Origin: Candidatus Margulisiibacteriota bacterium
Lineage (GTDB): Bacteria > Margulisbacteria > WOR-1 > JAHJIW01
NCBI GenBank assembly: GCA_018823125.1
Contig: JAHJIW010000005.1
Span: 142,542 to 206,541 of the forward strand
DNA: 64,000 nt
Reading direction: 5' to 3'
In this document: positions 39,886-44,004 of the stretch, in pieces
Position numbering within the stretch: position 1 is the first letter of the stretch
How the letters are laid out: each line of letters opens with the position of its first letter
Made by a program: the position numbers and the translations under genes
Notes under the pieces: model-generated
Databases searched by the model: none
What the model was told of the DNA's origin: nothing
The model's input: only the letters and a program-made list of their open reading frames with translations

Positions 39886-40536
39886 ATGACTGTTGAAGGA
39901 ACAAATGTAGGAGCTAATTTACAAAAGTTTTCTGCGCCACGTCGCCTTAATTGGAGACAGCAGGAAATTCTTAATAACAGTCGTCAACAATTATTGACCC
40001 CACAACAACTTGGTCAGGCTGAAAATTCAGCCGTTGCCCAAAGCGCCGCACAAAGTAATTCTACTGGTTTATCTTGGGAAGAAACTACTAATGACCGTAG
40101 CCGCGGTCTAAACATTGATCAAGAAGGAACTTCTGATTTTAACCTTAGTGCTCCCGAAGCTGATATCTTTGCTTTTTCAATGGCCGGTCCTCCGGTTGTT
40201 TCAGGCGACCTAAAAAGTGTCGCCAGCCTGCAACAAAGAAGAGAAGAGATTCTAGCGAAACTACCCGAAGATGTCGCTTCAACTTTACGTGATCATGGTG
40301 AAGCTTGGGTAGGCCGACACGGCGAAAGAAACACTTTAGTTGGCTTGGCCATGACCATGTTTAAACGTGGCAGCTTGAGAGCCAATGGAGTAAGTAGTTC
40401 AGACATAAAAGAATACGAAAATTGTTCGAAAGAAATTGCCGGCGCTGAAGCCCGCGAGAACGTTAAGAAAACTGTACATACACGAGAGTTGCAACGCGTT
40501 TTATATAACATTCCGGTAAACATGAGGGTGGCTTAA
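39886..40536 (+). CDS. Hypothetical Q/S-rich protein (216 aa)
   Basis: SD TAAGGAG. Low-complexity N-terminus (QQEILNNSRQQLLTPQQLGQAENSAVAQSAAQSNS). Confidence 0.55.
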   Translation: MTVEGTNVGANLQKFSAPRRLNWRQQEILNNSRQQLLTPQQLGQAENSAVAQSAAQSNSTGLSWEETTNDRSRGLNIDQEGTSDFNLSAPEADIFAFSMAGPPVVSGDLKSVASLQQRREEILAKLPEDVASTLRDHGEAWVGRHGERNTLVGLAMTMFKRGSLRANGVSSSDIKEYENCSKEIAGAEARENVKKTVHTRELQRVLYNIPVNMRVA

Positions 40537-40537
40537 G

Positions 40538-40948
40538 ATGGCTAAAGGAAACAAAAAACACAAAGCTGAACTTAAAGTTACCAATGAACTTTTAAGTCAA
40601 CTTATTTTAAGGGCTGAAAATTTAACTGGTAATAAGGGTTATTATTCACCACTTAAGTTAGAAGAAATGGCGCTGGATGCCTGTCGTGAAATTATCAGTG
40701 ATCTTTTGATCGAAAAAGCTAACCTCGAATATGAATTACATTCGTTGGGTACCGACAAAAAAGAAGCTTCGATAAAAATTGAGCGTGTCAACGCCTATAT
40801 TTCTCGAGCCGAAAATGCAAAAAAACAGCACATTCTTAAAATTAAAAAGATCTTAGGTAAACAAATTGGAGACGAGGATGAACTGGCTTTAGCGGTAGCC
40901 AGGATTGAACAAAAACCGACCGTTTCAGTATTAATTAAAAGTAATTAA
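40538..40948 (+). CDS. Small helical protein (136 aa)
   Basis: Starts 2 nt after the previous stop. Charged alpha-helical composition. Confidence 0.5.
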   Translation: MAKGNKKHKAELKVTNELLSQLILRAENLTGNKGYYSPLKLEEMALDACREIISDLLIEKANLEYELHSLGTDKKEASIKIERVNAYISRAENAKKQHILKIKKILGKQIGDEDELALAVARIEQKPTVSVLIKSN

Positions 40949-40962
40949 GGAGGTGAAATAAA

Positions 40963-41139
40963 ATGGGATCAGCCGCACCAACCAGCTTAACACAAACTTC
41001 ATCGTGGAAAGGACAAGATACCAACAGCAAAGCTAAGGTATCGCAACAAATGCTTTCTGATTTAGCACGAGTAAATTCTACCCGCAGAAAAGCACCGGTT
41101 AAAATGGATGACAGCACAAATGAATCGGCAGAGGCATAA
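40963..41139 (+). CDS. Unannotated 58-aa ORF (below track threshold)
   Basis: Perfect SD TAAGGAGGTGAAATAAA, then ATG. Translation: MGSAAPTSLTQTSSWKGQDTNSKAKVSQQMLSDLARVNSTRRKAPVKMDDSTNESAEA. Confidence 0.35.
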   Translation: MGSAAPTSLTQTSSWKGQDTNSKAKVSQQMLSDLARVNSTRRKAPVKMDDSTNESAEA

Positions 41140-41185
41140 AATATATATCTTGTTTATTTTTTAAAAAAAGGAGGTGAAATGAAAA

Positions 41186-42847
41186 ATGGGAGTAAATTTA
41201 GTAGTTGAAAATTCGGCAACCCAAGAAATGACTGCGGCCGTTTCTACGCAGGCAGTTTTAAACCAAGCTGAACAACTTAAGGAAGAATCTATCGCTGATA
41301 AAAAAGCAGGCAAAGCAGATAAAAAATCCCAAATCCGATCGTTGCTTAATCCCAAAAACAAGAACAAAGCCGGACTTGAACTGGTATCCAATCTTATTTC
41401 CGATTTAAATTCTTCTGGTCTTAAGGTTAATAATGCCAATGTGTTGGTTCAAAATAATACTGCCAAAGAAAAAGGCGGCTTATTTGGTGACCAAGAAGTA
41501 AAAGAAGATACAGTTGAAATCAGGGATACGGTACAAAGATTAACCCGTCAAAAAGATGACCAAAATCGTAGACAGCAAAGCTTAAATCCAGAAAAACAGC
41601 TAGTTTTAGATGAAGAGGCTACCGAAACCGCTAATCTGTATGCCCAAACATATGCCAACTATTTAGCTCATCCATCCTCTGAAGCCGAGGTTAAAAGAAA
41701 ATTAGCTAAAATGGAAAATCTGCTTGAAGAGAAAGGATTTACCCCTAAGGATTTATTATCTTTTCAAAATAAAGTTGCGCGTTCGGTTAGACAAGAGGTA
41801 TCCAAGCAAATAAAAGATGCCTTCTTAAAGCGCTTCTTTTCAAAAGAAAAATCAATAGAGTGGGTGGTTAATAACCGTAACCTGCAAAGCACTTTAGACG
41901 ACGCCTTTTTTAACCATAAAATTGGCGGACCCGATTTTGGAGGAGAAAATGGAGACCTCCAGGCTACGGCTAACCGTATTGCAGACGAAGCACGAGAAGA
42001 CGTAAGAAGTTATGTCAGGGATGAAATGGATAAGATGTTGGTTGAGAAACACCTCAAGGGTCCCGATGCTGAAAAAGCTAAAGAAATGTTTAAATTAGGA
42101 CTAAAGGCAGGTTTAGATATTGATAGCCTGTTGAACACGTGGGCTAAGAAACAAGAAGATTTAGGGTTGACCCCATTCGTTCCGCCGCAAAATAGTATGT
42201 TGGGTGCCGGAATGAGTGGTCAAGGTTCAAACCAGCAAAACCAAGAGTCAGTTTTTGATGAAGAAGATAAAAAAGAAATCTTTATTAATTCTTTGAGACA
42301 TATTTATATGCAACAAGCAATTAGTAATGATCTTTATAGCCGCTTTAAAATTCGATTAAAAATGGCGAAACATAAAAATCAAATGATTAAACTTAATATT
42401 CAATTTGAAGAAAAACAGATTAAAGAAGAGGGTAAAGCACTAGCTCGAATAAAACTATTAAAAATGCTTAAGGAGTTTTATTTAGAAAGATCCGCGTATT
42501 ATCAGCTTTCGGGTCCAGCCTATAAACTGACCGAAAGAAAGATTAAAAGTACCTTAAGTAACTTAGAAAGACTGGGCTTTGCCTTATCTGAATTCGAACA
42601 GAAAATATTGATTGATAAGACTAACTTAATCGTACGCGATCAAGTTATTGCCGAATTAAACGAAATTGATTATGCGCTAAAGTTGCATGATCATCCCGGA
42701 TTTAAACGAAAAAGACCGCTTTTAATGAAGATTTTGGCGCGCATCGAAGCCGAAACTAAAGTTAATACGCCCGCAAATGACGCTAAAATTGTAGAGTATT
42801 TACACAGAGGACAAAATGATCTAAGGATCATTGCCGAAGCGGCGTAA
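41186..42847 (+). CDS. Hypothetical coiled-coil protein (553 aa)
   Basis: SD AAAGGAGGTGAAAT. Q/N/K/E-rich with long predicted helices. No catalytic motifs. Confidence 0.6.
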   Translation: MGVNLVVENSATQEMTAAVSTQAVLNQAEQLKEESIADKKAGKADKKSQIRSLLNPKNKNKAGLELVSNLISDLNSSGLKVNNANVLVQNNTAKEKGGLFGDQEVKEDTVEIRDTVQRLTRQKDDQNRRQQSLNPEKQLVLDEEATETANLYAQTYANYLAHPSSEAEVKRKLAKMENLLEEKGFTPKDLLSFQNKVARSVRQEVSKQIKDAFLKRFFSKEKSIEWVVNNRNLQSTLDDAFFNHKIGGPDFGGENGDLQATANRIADEAREDVRSYVRDEMDKMLVEKHLKGPDAEKAKEMFKLGLKAGLDIDSLLNTWAKKQEDLGLTPFVPPQNSMLGAGMSGQGSNQQNQESVFDEEDKKEIFINSLRHIYMQQAISNDLYSRFKIRLKMAKHKNQMIKLNIQFEEKQIKEEGKALARIKLLKMLKEFYLERSAYYQLSGPAYKLTERKIKSTLSNLERLGFALSEFEQKILIDKTNLIVRDQVIAELNEIDYALKLHDHPGFKRKRPLLMKILARIEAETKVNTPANDAKIVEYLHRGQNDLRIIAEAA

Positions 42848-42858
42848 AAGGTGAAAAA

Positions 42859-44004
42859 ATGGATGCAAGTGTATCACAAATAAGAACCGACATTTTAAAG
42901 AAAAAGGAAGTTCGCCCTCTAGGAGAGAGGGGAGATCAACCCGTCGCTCAAAAAAGGACAATGCAAAACCAAGGGCCGGATAGTGTTAACACCATACTCC
43001 CACCTCCGTTTATGCCCGAAATTACACCCGTAAATCCTGACAACTTAATTGCCTTAGCAGATACTAATATGGGAGAAGAAACTGACCTTACAGCTGAGTT
43101 AGCATCCCTACGAGACTTTACTCCAGCCCAATTGCGAGAGAAAGTAGGTCAATACAGAGGAAGATTGCGCGTACTTGATAGAGATGTAACCTTTAAGCGG
43201 GAAACGCTTGCTGAACCTGGTGTACCAGACCAAGCAACCTTAGCTGGAGCAAGTGAATGTGCGGTAGCAACCAGAGACCTAGGTAAAGAAATGAAAGCAT
43301 TAGATGATGCAATTGATGACGATGATCCCGAAATGGCAGAAATTAGAAGCGAATTAAATGAAGCTCAACAGGTTTATGCTGAAATAGTTGGGAACTTAGA
43401 AGGCTTAGCCGCTGATTTGCATCAAGCAGGTTTCACCGAAATTGCAGATGAAATTGGAAGTATCTTAGCCGAAATCGACGCAATTCAGTCTGGGTTTTCC
43501 ACCTCCGCAATTACTAACGAAAGCGATGATGTATCTACGCTTGGTAGCACTGGCTCAACCGACTGGATAGGATTAATCGAATCGGCTGCTGATAATCCTG
43601 CACTTTTAGCTCTGATTATGAAATTCTTAGAAAATGATGCAGCCATGAGAGAAATCATTGTTAATAATATTCAAGAAAGAAAAGAGGAAGAAAAAGAACT
43701 TGAAAAACTAATGGAAAATAAAAAAGAAGAAAGAAAGCCAATTAGAAACGCCCTGATTGAACAAATTCAACAATTAGATACTTATCGTAAAAAACTTAGC
43801 GTAGCCTTAGATACTTTGCAAGTTGCTAACCAAAAGCTAGAAGCCATGTCTGACCAGCTTTCTCCTCAGCAATATGCTGCCTTATTACAAGAAATCGCAA
43901 GTGCTCGAAGCAAAAGTGTGCAGGCATTAACTCAAGTAGGAGGCCAGAGAAACATTGCAATCCTTCAAGCCCGCGAAGAAGGAATCGACCTCTCTAACGT
44001 TTAA
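42859..44004 (+). CDS. Hypothetical acidic coiled-coil protein (381 aa)
   Basis: D/E/A/L-rich, e.g. KEEEKELEKLMENKKEERK. Its 3' end overlaps the convergent phosphatase gene by 4 nt. Confidence 0.6.
   Translation: MDASVSQIRTDILKKKEVRPLGERGDQPVAQKRTMQNQGPDSVNTILPPPFMPEITPVNPDNLIALADTNMGEETDLTAELASLRDFTPAQLREKVGQYRGRLRVLDRDVTFKRETLAEPGVPDQATLAGASECAVATRDLGKEMKALDDAIDDDDPEMAEIRSELNEAQQVYAEIVGNLEGLAADLHQAGFTEIADEIGSILAEIDAIQSGFSTSAITNESDDVSTLGSTGSTDWIGLIESAADNPALLALIMKFLENDAAMREIIVNNIQERKEEEKELEKLMENKKEERKPIRNALIEQIQQLDTYRKKLSVALDTLQVANQKLEAMSDQLSPQQYAALLQEIASARSKSVQALTQVGGQRNIAILQAREEGIDLSNV

Follow-up and report, generated by a model that had tools for sequence, protein, structure and literature searches.

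To what kind of system do five tightly packed genes belong that stand behind a sigma-28-type promoter in an uncultivated bacterium and resemble no characterised family? The genes lie in the second half of a 64,000-nt stretch of contig JAHJIW010000005.1 (assembly GCA_018823125.1, Candidatus Margulisiibacteriota bacterium), which was analysed at its full length and is called the window below. Hardly anything has been learned about the cell biology of Margulisbacteria and Saganbacteria, two uncultivated groups that are sister to Cyanobacteria. An initial annotation, made from the sequence alone, had described an operon of five open reading frames (ORFs) of 216, 136, 58, 553, and 381 aa, arranged in the manner of flgM-flgN-flgK-flgL-type late flagellar operons without sequence similarity to them. 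We confirmed the five ORFs on the + strand, their common direction behind a sigma-28-like promoter, and the lack of similarity to flgM, flgN, flgK, and flgL. We propose, tentatively and with a probability of about 0.45, that the five ORFs make up the final transcription unit of a lineage-specific module that is co-regulated with flagella and whose products are probably exported or surface-associated.

A sigma-28-type promoter motif precedes the operon

Repeat analysis of the window revealed four copies of a 48-nt element with the core TTTCATGCAAGTTT-N12-C(C/A)CGAT, at 28.96, 31.18, 36.89, and 39.82 kb. The fuller motif was ATGCAAGTTT-N12-C[C/A]CGATA, and each copy was located 40–75 nt upstream of the first gene of a group (the 114-, 1871-, 81-, and 216-aa ORFs, respectively). 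The consensus for sigma-28/FliA/SigD promoters is TAAAGTTT-N11/12-GCCGATAA. With a −35 element TAAA(GTTT) and a −10 element GCCGATAA at a spacing of 11–12 nt (15 nt after TAAA), the sites in the window fall into the sigma-28 promoter class. The site assigned to the operon in the initial annotation, promoter D, is real as a motif and is one of the four window copies; its sequence is GCAAGTTT-N12-CACGATAA, and promoters A–C carry CCCGATA/T. A generic scan for sigma-70 promoters and terminators returned 38 sites against 39.9 expected and was uninformative.

The motif was then followed in relative loci (numbered with the prefix L), which included the contigs of homologues of the 553-aa protein and 38 further metagenomic loci. 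It was conserved at orthologous positions in L003, L007, and L009, and in L003 the promoter D site was kept before the positional orthologue of the first operon gene. Orthologues of the giant 1871-aa protein stood behind the same motif in L003, L045, and L107. Within 401 kb of loci that had been gathered by protein similarity alone, the motif occurred 23 times; 20 of these copies were called intergenic, and the other three lay inside ORFs that we took to be spurious antisense calls. A gene followed within 300 nt for 21 of the 23 copies, nearly always a gene of the cluster described below and nine times a member of the 553 family, whose genes have a promoter of their own in many relatives. In many relatives the motif was also found before genes of famA, the family that occupies the position of the 216-aa ORF.

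When species-representative genomes totalling 596 Gb were scanned for the exact pattern, at least 112 stretches matched. Among the matches listed, 55 were named Margulisiibacteriota, Saganbacteria or WOR-1, about 30 came from metagenome-assembled genomes (MAGs) without a taxon name that shared the extended −10 element CGATAATATAnGTG and often carried cluster homologues, and about 25 came from unrelated taxa, a number close to the approximately 35 chance matches estimated over all taxa. Most genes downstream of the matches had no Pfam domain. A description of the motif or of the cluster was not found in the literature. The motif defined here is a phylum-wide one of sigma-28 type, with part of its regulon, and it provides a handle for reading metatranscriptomes of these organisms.

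The motif and the 553 family are linked to flagellar genes in relatives

In the Saganbacteria locus L115 (MAG JAPLLA01), the motif was located before the genes for FliK (Flg_hook, 1.3e-14), FlgD, FlgE/G, FliM, and FliN. In L012, from another MAG, it preceded fliK, two FlgF/G-like genes, and flgA. A further link was provided by L123 and L124, whose distant members of the 553 family are about 26% identical to the window protein and keep the order small-small-large-famA-famB-553 (famB being the family of the 136-aa protein). In both loci, a 288-aa gene of the FlgE/G family lies 19–68 nt downstream of the 553-family gene. The 288-aa protein matched FlgE (2.5e-14) and FlgG (1.3e-10) when searched with phmmer against PDB, and it was 29% identical to the FlgE-like protein of L115 (E = 2e-30). 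L123 also has a CCGATAT −10 element before its first small gene. The flagellar connection that had been surmised for the operon was therefore supported in two ways, by the same promoter type before hook and switch genes in L115 and by the FlgE/G gene after the 553-family gene in L123 and L124. Margulisbacteria have been reported to carry canonical flagellins as well as FlgV, a protein co-conserved with sigma-28 (PMC7018530, PMC11607428). A search of the collected loci with reference sequences detected no canonical flagellin, FlgK or FliA, and fliA was not found in the window either.

Table 1. Positions of the promoters, operon genes, and repeated ribosome-binding sites in the window (TM, transmembrane segment; SD, Shine-Dalgarno sequence)
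Feature	Position	Strand	Description
Promoter A	28956-28984	+	Start of the cluster; before the 114-, 73- (TM), 415-, and 79-aa (TM) ORFs (29054-31125)
Promoter B	31174-31202	+	Before the giant 1871-aa ORF (31254-36869)
Promoter C	36887-36915	+	Before the 81-, 100-, 92-, 101-, and 523-aa ORFs (36941-39788)
13-mer SD AAGGAGGTGAAAT	37505-37517	+	Before the 92-aa ORF (start 37521)
Promoter D	39816-39844	+	ATGCAAGTTT-N12-CACGATA, about 40 nt upstream of the 216-aa ORF
216-aa ORF	39886-40536	+	First operon gene; fast-evolving positional orthologue of the 160-300-aa family famA
136-aa ORF (famB)	40538-40948	+	Best-conserved operon protein; isoelectric point (pI) 9.1; three long helices and a short one predicted
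13-mer SD AAGGAGGTGAAAT	40947-40959	+	Its end lies 3 nt before the start codon (ATG) of the 58-aa ORF
58-aa ORF	40963-41139	+	Species-specific orphan, S/T-rich, basic; plausibly translated, not conserved
13-mer SD AAGGAGGTGAAAT	41168-41180	+	Before the 553-aa ORF
553-aa ORF	41186-42847	+	Conserved protein, predicted all-alpha; founder of a lineage-restricted family
381-aa ORF	42859-44004	+	Last operon gene; acidic, coiled-coil-like, fast-evolving
His_Phos_1 gene	44001-44645	-	Convergent; Pfam His_Phos_1, 1.2e-60; conserved right-hand boundary of the cluster

The operon is the last unit of an old, conserved cluster

The operon forms the 3′ end of a cluster that spans about 15 kb (28,950-44,004, + strand), in which ORFs of 114, 73 (TM), 415, 79 (TM), 1871, 81, 100, 92, 101, and 523 aa precede the five operon ORFs. 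None of the cluster proteins gave a match above threshold in Pfam or NCBIfam. The cluster is flanked upstream by genes for trehalose synthesis, the shikimate pathway, and tRNA synthetase, and downstream by hisA/hisH, a ROK kinase gene, groES/EL, nusA, and infB.

The gene order was kept in about 25 related loci (including L003, L005, L007, and L009 and about 17 metagenomic loci), in which the identity of the 553-family proteins was only 27–43%. It consists of the giant protein, 3–5 small ORFs, the 523 family (conserved in all syntenic loci), famA (160–300 aa), famB (131–136 aa), an optional gene with a family 2 glycosyltransferase and a tetratricopeptide-repeat domain (GT2+TPR), the 553 family, and a variable last gene. 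Where a locus reached past this gene, it contained in most cases the same convergent His_Phos gene, followed by hisA, hisH, ROK, and groES/EL. The stop codon of the 381-aa gene (TAA, 44002-44004) lies within a 4-nt overlap with the phosphatase gene, exactly as annotated, and this overlap recurred in L003 and L007. From the overlap it had been concluded that an insertion was packed tightly into a host locus, a view that could not be upheld, because the cluster, its position, and the overlap itself are all conserved in relatives whose 553-family proteins share only 30–43% identity. Judged from these comparisons, the cluster is old, vertically inherited, and specific to Margulisiibacteriota/Saganbacteria.

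Properties of the operon proteins

The gaps between the five ORFs are 1, 14, 46, and 11 nt, in order. In the NCBI annotation, the 381-aa gene encodes 347 aa, as its start is placed 34 codons later (codon 35). No signal peptides or TM segments were found in the operon proteins, and the maximal hydropathy over 19 residues was 0.53 for the 553-aa and 1.24 for the 381-aa protein. The cluster proteins contain 6.0% Q and 6.4% N, compared with 2.9% and 4.2% in the housekeeping proteins of the window; Cys amounts to 0.39% versus 0.77%, and S, T, N, and Q are enriched.

The 553-aa protein had 11 homologues (29–43% identical) in an index of 5.8 billion proteins, and their five named carriers were MAGs of Margulisiibacteriota or Saganbacteria, or an unclassified ‘bacterium’. 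An exhaustive profile search extended the family to 273 clusters (50%-identity representatives, E ≤ 1e-3). In the family alignment A1, 28 residues were invariant, 22 of which fell in the C-terminal third. The AlphaFold 2 (AF2) model of the protein was all-alpha with multiple helices and an overall predicted local distance difference test score (pLDDT) of 59.6, which is moderate; the N-terminal ~115 residues were modelled with low confidence, and the conserved C-terminal helical domain (359–525) reached a pLDDT of about 85. A PDB profile search with the family gave no match, and a Foldseek search of PDB with the model returned only generic helical repeats or bundles (E ≥ 0.04, none with E < 0.01). 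The 553- and 381-aa proteins had been described as Q/N/E-rich coiled-coil proteins. The enrichment in Q, N, and E was borne out, but the 553-aa protein is predicted to be all-alpha with multiple helices and not to form a single long coiled coil.

The 136-aa protein was 60% identical to its syntenic counterpart in L003, 48.5% in L005, and 37% in both L009 and L007. Its AF2 model consisted of three long helices (pLDDT 77; predicted template modelling score 0.60), for which Foldseek found only non-specific helical matches in PDB (E ≥ 0.2), with no FlgN, FliS or FliT in the top 50. The protein had no Pfam or NCBIfam match below E = 0.01, those families included, and its pI of 9.1 is atypical for chaperones of the FlgN/FliS/FliT type.

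For the 216-aa protein, no Pfam or NCBIfam match was found, nor any BLAST or phmmer match even in syntenic loci. A weak profile link tied it to famA (hmmsearch E = 0.004; hhalign probability 36%, E = 3.7e-4, over the C-terminal 37 residues). BLAST clustering had suggested that famA and famB are paralogues; this was not supported by hhalign (0.1%), and the BLAST link was traced to a few long famA genes whose C-terminal region is famB-like. The 381-aa protein retrieved only itself from the 5.8 billion proteins. It showed sub-threshold Pfam/NCBIfam matches to the coiled-coil families ATG17_like and SMC and a weak profile link to the 182–280-aa genes at the same position in L005, L129, L133, and L150 (hmmsearch 7.6e-5; hhalign 61%, E = 7.8e-5).

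Comparison with flagellar and type III secretion proteins

The arrangement of the operon recalls late flagellar and translocator operons, and candidate identities were examined in turn. Pfam analysis of 137 members of all cluster families detected no flagellar, secretion or cytoskeletal domain; the only matches were to 23S-rRNA-IVP and glycosyltransferase genes, which are inserted neighbours. An identity of the 553- or 381-aa protein with FlgK/FlgL or FlgE/F/G was rejected, since no Flg_bb_rod (NNIAN.NT.GYK), Flg_bbr_C, flagellin or FlgK domain was present in the window proteins or the 137 relatives. Alignment of every cluster family with the lineage's own FlgE/G and FliK by hhalign gave probabilities below 1% (0.5% for the 553 family against FlgE/G), and the same tools readily detected the true FlgE/G in L115, L012, and L123. 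A hook-associated fold (helical D1 plus beta D2) was likewise rejected for the 553-aa protein, whose predicted model is all-alpha without beta domains, at moderate confidence, and which had no PDB match. A FliK identity of the 553 family was rejected as well, with no Flg_hook match and an hhalign probability of 0.4% against the lineage's FliK.

Among the smaller proteins, a FlgM identity of the 58-, 136-, and 216-aa products was rejected for lack of a Pfam match, the 58-aa ORF in addition not being conserved, and an identity of the 136-aa protein with FlgN, FliS or FliT was not supported by the family hidden Markov models (Pfam, NCBIfam, no match with E < 0.01). The 553- and 381-aa proteins contain no hydrophobic hairpin and had no Pfam, PDB or Foldseek match that would make them translocators (SipB/IpaB/YopB). 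The suggested comparison of the two large proteins with hook-associated proteins and translocators was thus not supported: axial termini, Pfam and PDB matches, and hydrophobic segments were all lacking, and hhalign against FlgE/G stayed below 1%. A likeness of the 92- and 101-aa proteins to the needle subunits of type III secretion systems (T3SSs; PrgI/MxiH/YscF) had been noticed by eye, but the PDB profile search returned no needle protein (E ≤ 10), and the profile of their ~100-aa family reached an hhalign probability of 3% against seven needle sequences.

A probable young orphan: the 58-aa ORF and its strong ribosome-binding site

The tiny third ORF had been presented as unannotated and as sharing a perfect SD with its neighbours. 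In fact, both NCBI and Logan had already annotated it on contig JAHIZP010000005.1 (GCA_018814585.1, from a MAG labelled Candidatus Margulisbacteria), which contains the window sequence. Exactly three copies of the 13-mer SD AAGGAGGTGAAAT are present in the window, and no other copy was found even with one mismatch (0.17 expected from shuffles). The SD is strong and exact, is ideally spaced from the start codon, and is shared with the 553-aa ORF; the SDs of the 216-, 136-, and 381-aa genes differ from it and are weaker, so that the sharing does not extend to all neighbours. The codon usage of the 58-aa ORF was also coding-like, with an in-frame score of 0.32, compared with 0.37 ± 0.12 for in-frame windows of the cluster and −0.84 ± 0.33 for off-frame windows.

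Conservation, on the other hand, was absent. No homologue of the 58-aa ORF was found in about 160 related loci, no profile link was detected, and the ORF was present only in identical copies of the same contig (L001 and L002). In the closest relative, L003, its slot is empty and the flanking 134- and 559-aa genes are 11 nt apart; in other relatives, the slot is occupied by unrelated genes, either a GT-TPR gene or a 244-aa ORF with a promoter. The idea of a conserved tiny operon member was accordingly abandoned. A decayed remnant of the GT-TPR or 244-aa gene was rejected by comparison with those genes, and a structured RNA by the lack of a structure signal (z = +0.53) and of an Rfam family. From its sequence context, the 58-aa ORF would be a young species-specific orphan with a strong SD, whose translation is plausible. 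If so, it offers a clean example of a young orphan gene with a strong ribosome-binding site inside an old operon.

Two initiation regions within the cluster were found to be duplicated. Positions 37490-37517 and 41153-41180 (28 nt, upstream of the 92- and 553-aa ORFs, respectively) were 89% identical. Positions 37888-37921 and 40952-40985 (34 nt) were 79% identical and spanned the first eight codons of the 101- and 58-aa ORFs (MGYVTPTS and MGSAAPTS); this likeness did not extend into the rest of the protein. The latter duplication suggests that the orphan may have gained its start region by copying within the cluster.

Interpretation of the operon and competing explanations

In the reading that we prefer, a FliA-like sigma factor would transcribe the five genes along with those for hook and switch proteins of the flagellum, and the products would most likely function beyond the cytoplasm, after export by the flagellar type III apparatus or assembly on it. 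The 553-aa protein, predicted to be all-alpha, may be the core cargo or a structural component, and the 136-aa protein, with the 216-aa protein, may serve as a cytoplasmic partner, either a chaperone or a regulator. The 381-aa coiled-coil protein could be an exposed component under diversifying pressure. The 58-aa ORF would be a young addition that borrows a strong SD and stands outside the conserved machinery. Export independent of Sec would be consistent with the absence of signal peptides and TM segments, the low Cys content, the enrichment in S, T, N, and Q, the low-confidence N-terminus of the 553-aa model, the Ca-binding motifs, and the glycosyltransferase genes embedded in the cluster of relatives. 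If the products are flagellum-associated or exported, they represent new components or cargo of a well-studied bacterial machine.

Several findings weigh against this interpretation. No flagellar gene was seen in the 64-kb window, and a cluster and a flagellar gene were observed in one genome only for L123 and L124. In the Saganbacteria MAG whose hook operon stands behind the promoter, the motif is also located before a helix-turn-helix (HTH)-Fic pair, an outer-membrane-like protein, and genes of unknown function, and no cluster-family homologue was found in the seven 8-kb chunks of this MAG. The compositional arguments for export are weak, and the 553-aa model is of moderate quality. Across all searches (Pfam, NCBIfam, PDB profiles, hhalign, and Foldseek), no cluster protein showed homology to a flagellar, T3SS or other characterised family.

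A bolder version of the flagellum-coupled module would be a previously undescribed extracellular apparatus, or a secreted set, that uses the flagellar type III machinery. In it, the ~100-aa paralogues would polymerise, the 523-, 553-, and 381-aa and giant proteins would be tip, adhesin or effector proteins, often glycosylated, and the 136- and 216-aa proteins would be chaperones. We consider this version improbable; if true, it would be a new, non-homologous use of the flagellar regulon in a phylum sister to Cyanobacteria.

As the motif also stands before non-flagellar genes, the regulon behind it is broader than flagella. A family of ~390-aa proteins was repeatedly encoded behind the motif (L028 2986-4158, L037 1830-3014, L114 1580-2731, and L112 517-1398); the members in L028 and L037 resemble outer-membrane beta-barrels and carry a signal peptide, and the one in L114 has a weak DUF5723 match. 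The outer-membrane-like appearance of this family suggests that the regulon includes envelope proteins.

Considering this breadth, the cluster might belong to a sigma-28-type regulon of a non-flagellar kind, that is, a surface, adhesion or differentiation module without flagellar export, under a group-3 sigma factor that would also serve flagellar genes in some members. Chlamydial sigma-28 late genes and WhiG in Streptomyces are parallels for such use. The motif before the HTH-Fic genes, the outer-membrane-like 390-aa family, and many unknown small proteins would be expected under this explanation, as would the location of the cluster among housekeeping genes and not in a flagellar locus. CAVYHE01 and OY969425.1, which have many promoter matches, showed no flagellar gene among those matches (8-kb chunks), and the flagellated Saganbacteria MAG without a cluster homologue in its seven chunks points the same way; the giant protein of 1,700–7,800 aa and the Ca-binding motifs would fit adhesion. 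The FlgE/G gene directly after the 553-family gene in L123 and L124 argues against it, however, and since the proteins have no signal peptides, another export route must be postulated; moreover, the other genomes were sampled only as 8-kb chunks. We regard this explanation, the main rival, as possible, though somewhat unlikely. Should it be right, a sigma-28 regulon has been re-used for another surface structure.

The all-alpha or coiled-coil-like character of the proteins without signal peptides and TM segments, the sub-threshold SMC and ATG17-like matches, and the basic, helical 136-aa protein could also point to a cytoplasmic scaffold, with the 553- and 381-aa proteins being cytoskeleton-like or associated with the motor or with chemoreceptors and co-expressed with motility genes. 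No homology to known bacterial cytoskeletal families was found, however, and the fast divergence of the 216- and 381-aa proteins, together with the glycosyltransferases of relatives, fits exposed proteins better, as do the dockerin-like Ca-binding motifs in cluster partners. Such a scaffold therefore appears to us a doubtful proposition.

A highly diverged late operon of the flgM-flgN-flgK-flgL type, or a T3SS translocator operon with its chaperone, agrees with the sizes and order of the genes (136 aa as FlgN, 553 aa as FlgK, and 381 aa as FlgL), with the sigma-28-type promoter, and with the axial-family gene in the slot after the 553-family gene in distant relatives. Set against this are the lack of axial, FlgM, and FlgN domains, hhalign probabilities below 1%, an all-alpha model, and the absence of hydrophobic hairpins, so that this explanation appears largely refuted at the level of homology and is in our view very unlikely. 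A recently inserted mobile island, prophage remnant or defence system would agree with the ORFan nature of all genes and their tight packing against a housekeeping gene, but this is refuted by the synteny and position kept across deeply diverged relatives and disagrees with a GC content (0.37–0.43) similar to that of the adjoining DNA and with the absence of an integrase, transposase or repeat boundaries at the cluster in the window, leaving hardly any chance for it.

Relation to known sigma-28 systems

The closest formal counterparts of the operon are yvyF-flgM-yvyG(flgN)-flgK-flgL of B. subtilis and the enterobacterial flgMN and flgKL operons, with which it shares the consensus and spacing of the sigma-28-type promoter and the compact small-small-(tiny)-large-large unit. 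Its products are likewise Cys-poor and without signal peptides, and the unit in relatives is co-regulated with or linked to hook genes. Unlike those operons, it has no FlgM, FlgN, FlgK or FlgL homologue, and its large proteins have neither axial termini nor beta domains. The motif here also precedes hook, switch, and non-flagellar genes, so a ‘late’ class cannot be assumed.

In Campylobacter jejuni, the Feds, FlaC, FspA, and Cia proteins are sigma-28-dependent, non-flagellar, and partly exported through the flagellar T3SS. They resemble the cluster proteins as lineage-specific products without known domains or Sec signals under a flagellar sigma factor. The C. jejuni genes are scattered singly, whereas the genes studied here form a syntenic cluster of 15 kb that also encodes small conserved partners and a giant protein, and whose products are proposed to be exported. 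In the chlamydial sigma-28 regulon (hctB, tsp, and others), sigma-28 has been kept for non-motility functions, and a sigma-28-type promoter similarly stands before lineage-specific non-flagellar proteins; in contrast, the Margulisbacteria/Saganbacteria phylum possesses genes for the hook, rod, and switch of the flagellum, which the same motif precedes. T3SS needle and translocator operons (PrgI/MxiH; SipB/IpaB) are alike in having tandem ~100-aa helix-loop-helix proteins upstream of large helical ones, and a small helical protein before two large ones, but differ in that the needle comparison gave only 3% in hhalign, PDB matches and TM hairpins were lacking, and no injectisome genes were seen. 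The regulatory logic of the operon is known, and the protein families and the cluster are undescribed. The 15-kb cluster adds a set of uncharacterised families, and its proteins are candidates for structural work.

Further features of the cluster and the motif

The 92-aa (37521-37799) and 101-aa (37899-38204) ORFs were found to be paralogues within a superfamily of ~100-aa acidic helix-loop-helix proteins, which had 40 members in the collected loci; in most cases, two of its genes stand in tandem immediately before the 523-family gene. The 73-aa (29409-29630) and 79-aa (30886-31125) ORFs are alike, each with one N-terminal TM helix and a K/Q-rich coiled-coil tail, and they directly follow the soluble 114- and 415-aa genes, respectively. 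In L003, a homologue of 75 aa occupies the position of the 79-aa ORF, and similar ORFs with a TM helix and a coiled coil stand behind the promoter in L021 and L064.

The 415-aa protein (29633-30880) contains a sub-threshold EF-hand/dockerin-like Ca-binding motif (D-x-N-G-D-G...), and such motifs were also present in the 523-family members of L041 and L052. Their occurrence in cluster proteins without signal peptides gives a hint of a role outside the cell or one that depends on Ca. A GT2+TPR glycosyltransferase gene (~360 aa) was located between the 136- and 553-family genes in L005 (8864-9952), L126, L128-L130, L133, L150, L155, and L158, and GT1/GT4 genes follow the cluster in relatives. The window is without these glycosyltransferases and has the 58-aa ORF in the GT2+TPR slot.

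Genes for four-helix-bundle proteins of the 23S-rRNA-intervening-sequence family PF05635 were present inside the cluster of L007 (3964-4356), L009 (4240-4740 and 13385-13801), L138, L143, L146, L148, and L153, scattered as if inserted repeatedly. In L123 (1-4916) and L124 (1-3245), a giant gene lies beside the cluster on the minus strand, encoding 6,669 and 7,805 residues, respectively, and is thus divergent, whereas the 1,871-aa gene of the window lineage is co-oriented.

Two additional occurrences of the motif were noted. A fifth sigma-28-like site in the window (4906-4934, minus strand; TAAGTTT-N12-CCCGATT) is located within a HEPN-like ORF (4071-5063, minus strand) or at its 5′ part and adjoins a DNA methylase gene (1629-3308, minus strand), in a stretch of low GC content; the match may have arisen by chance, or the start of the HEPN-like ORF may be mis-set. 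In L003, an extra copy of the promoter (16043-16086), which has no counterpart in the window, precedes a 933-aa ORF without a domain match between the ROK gene and groES.

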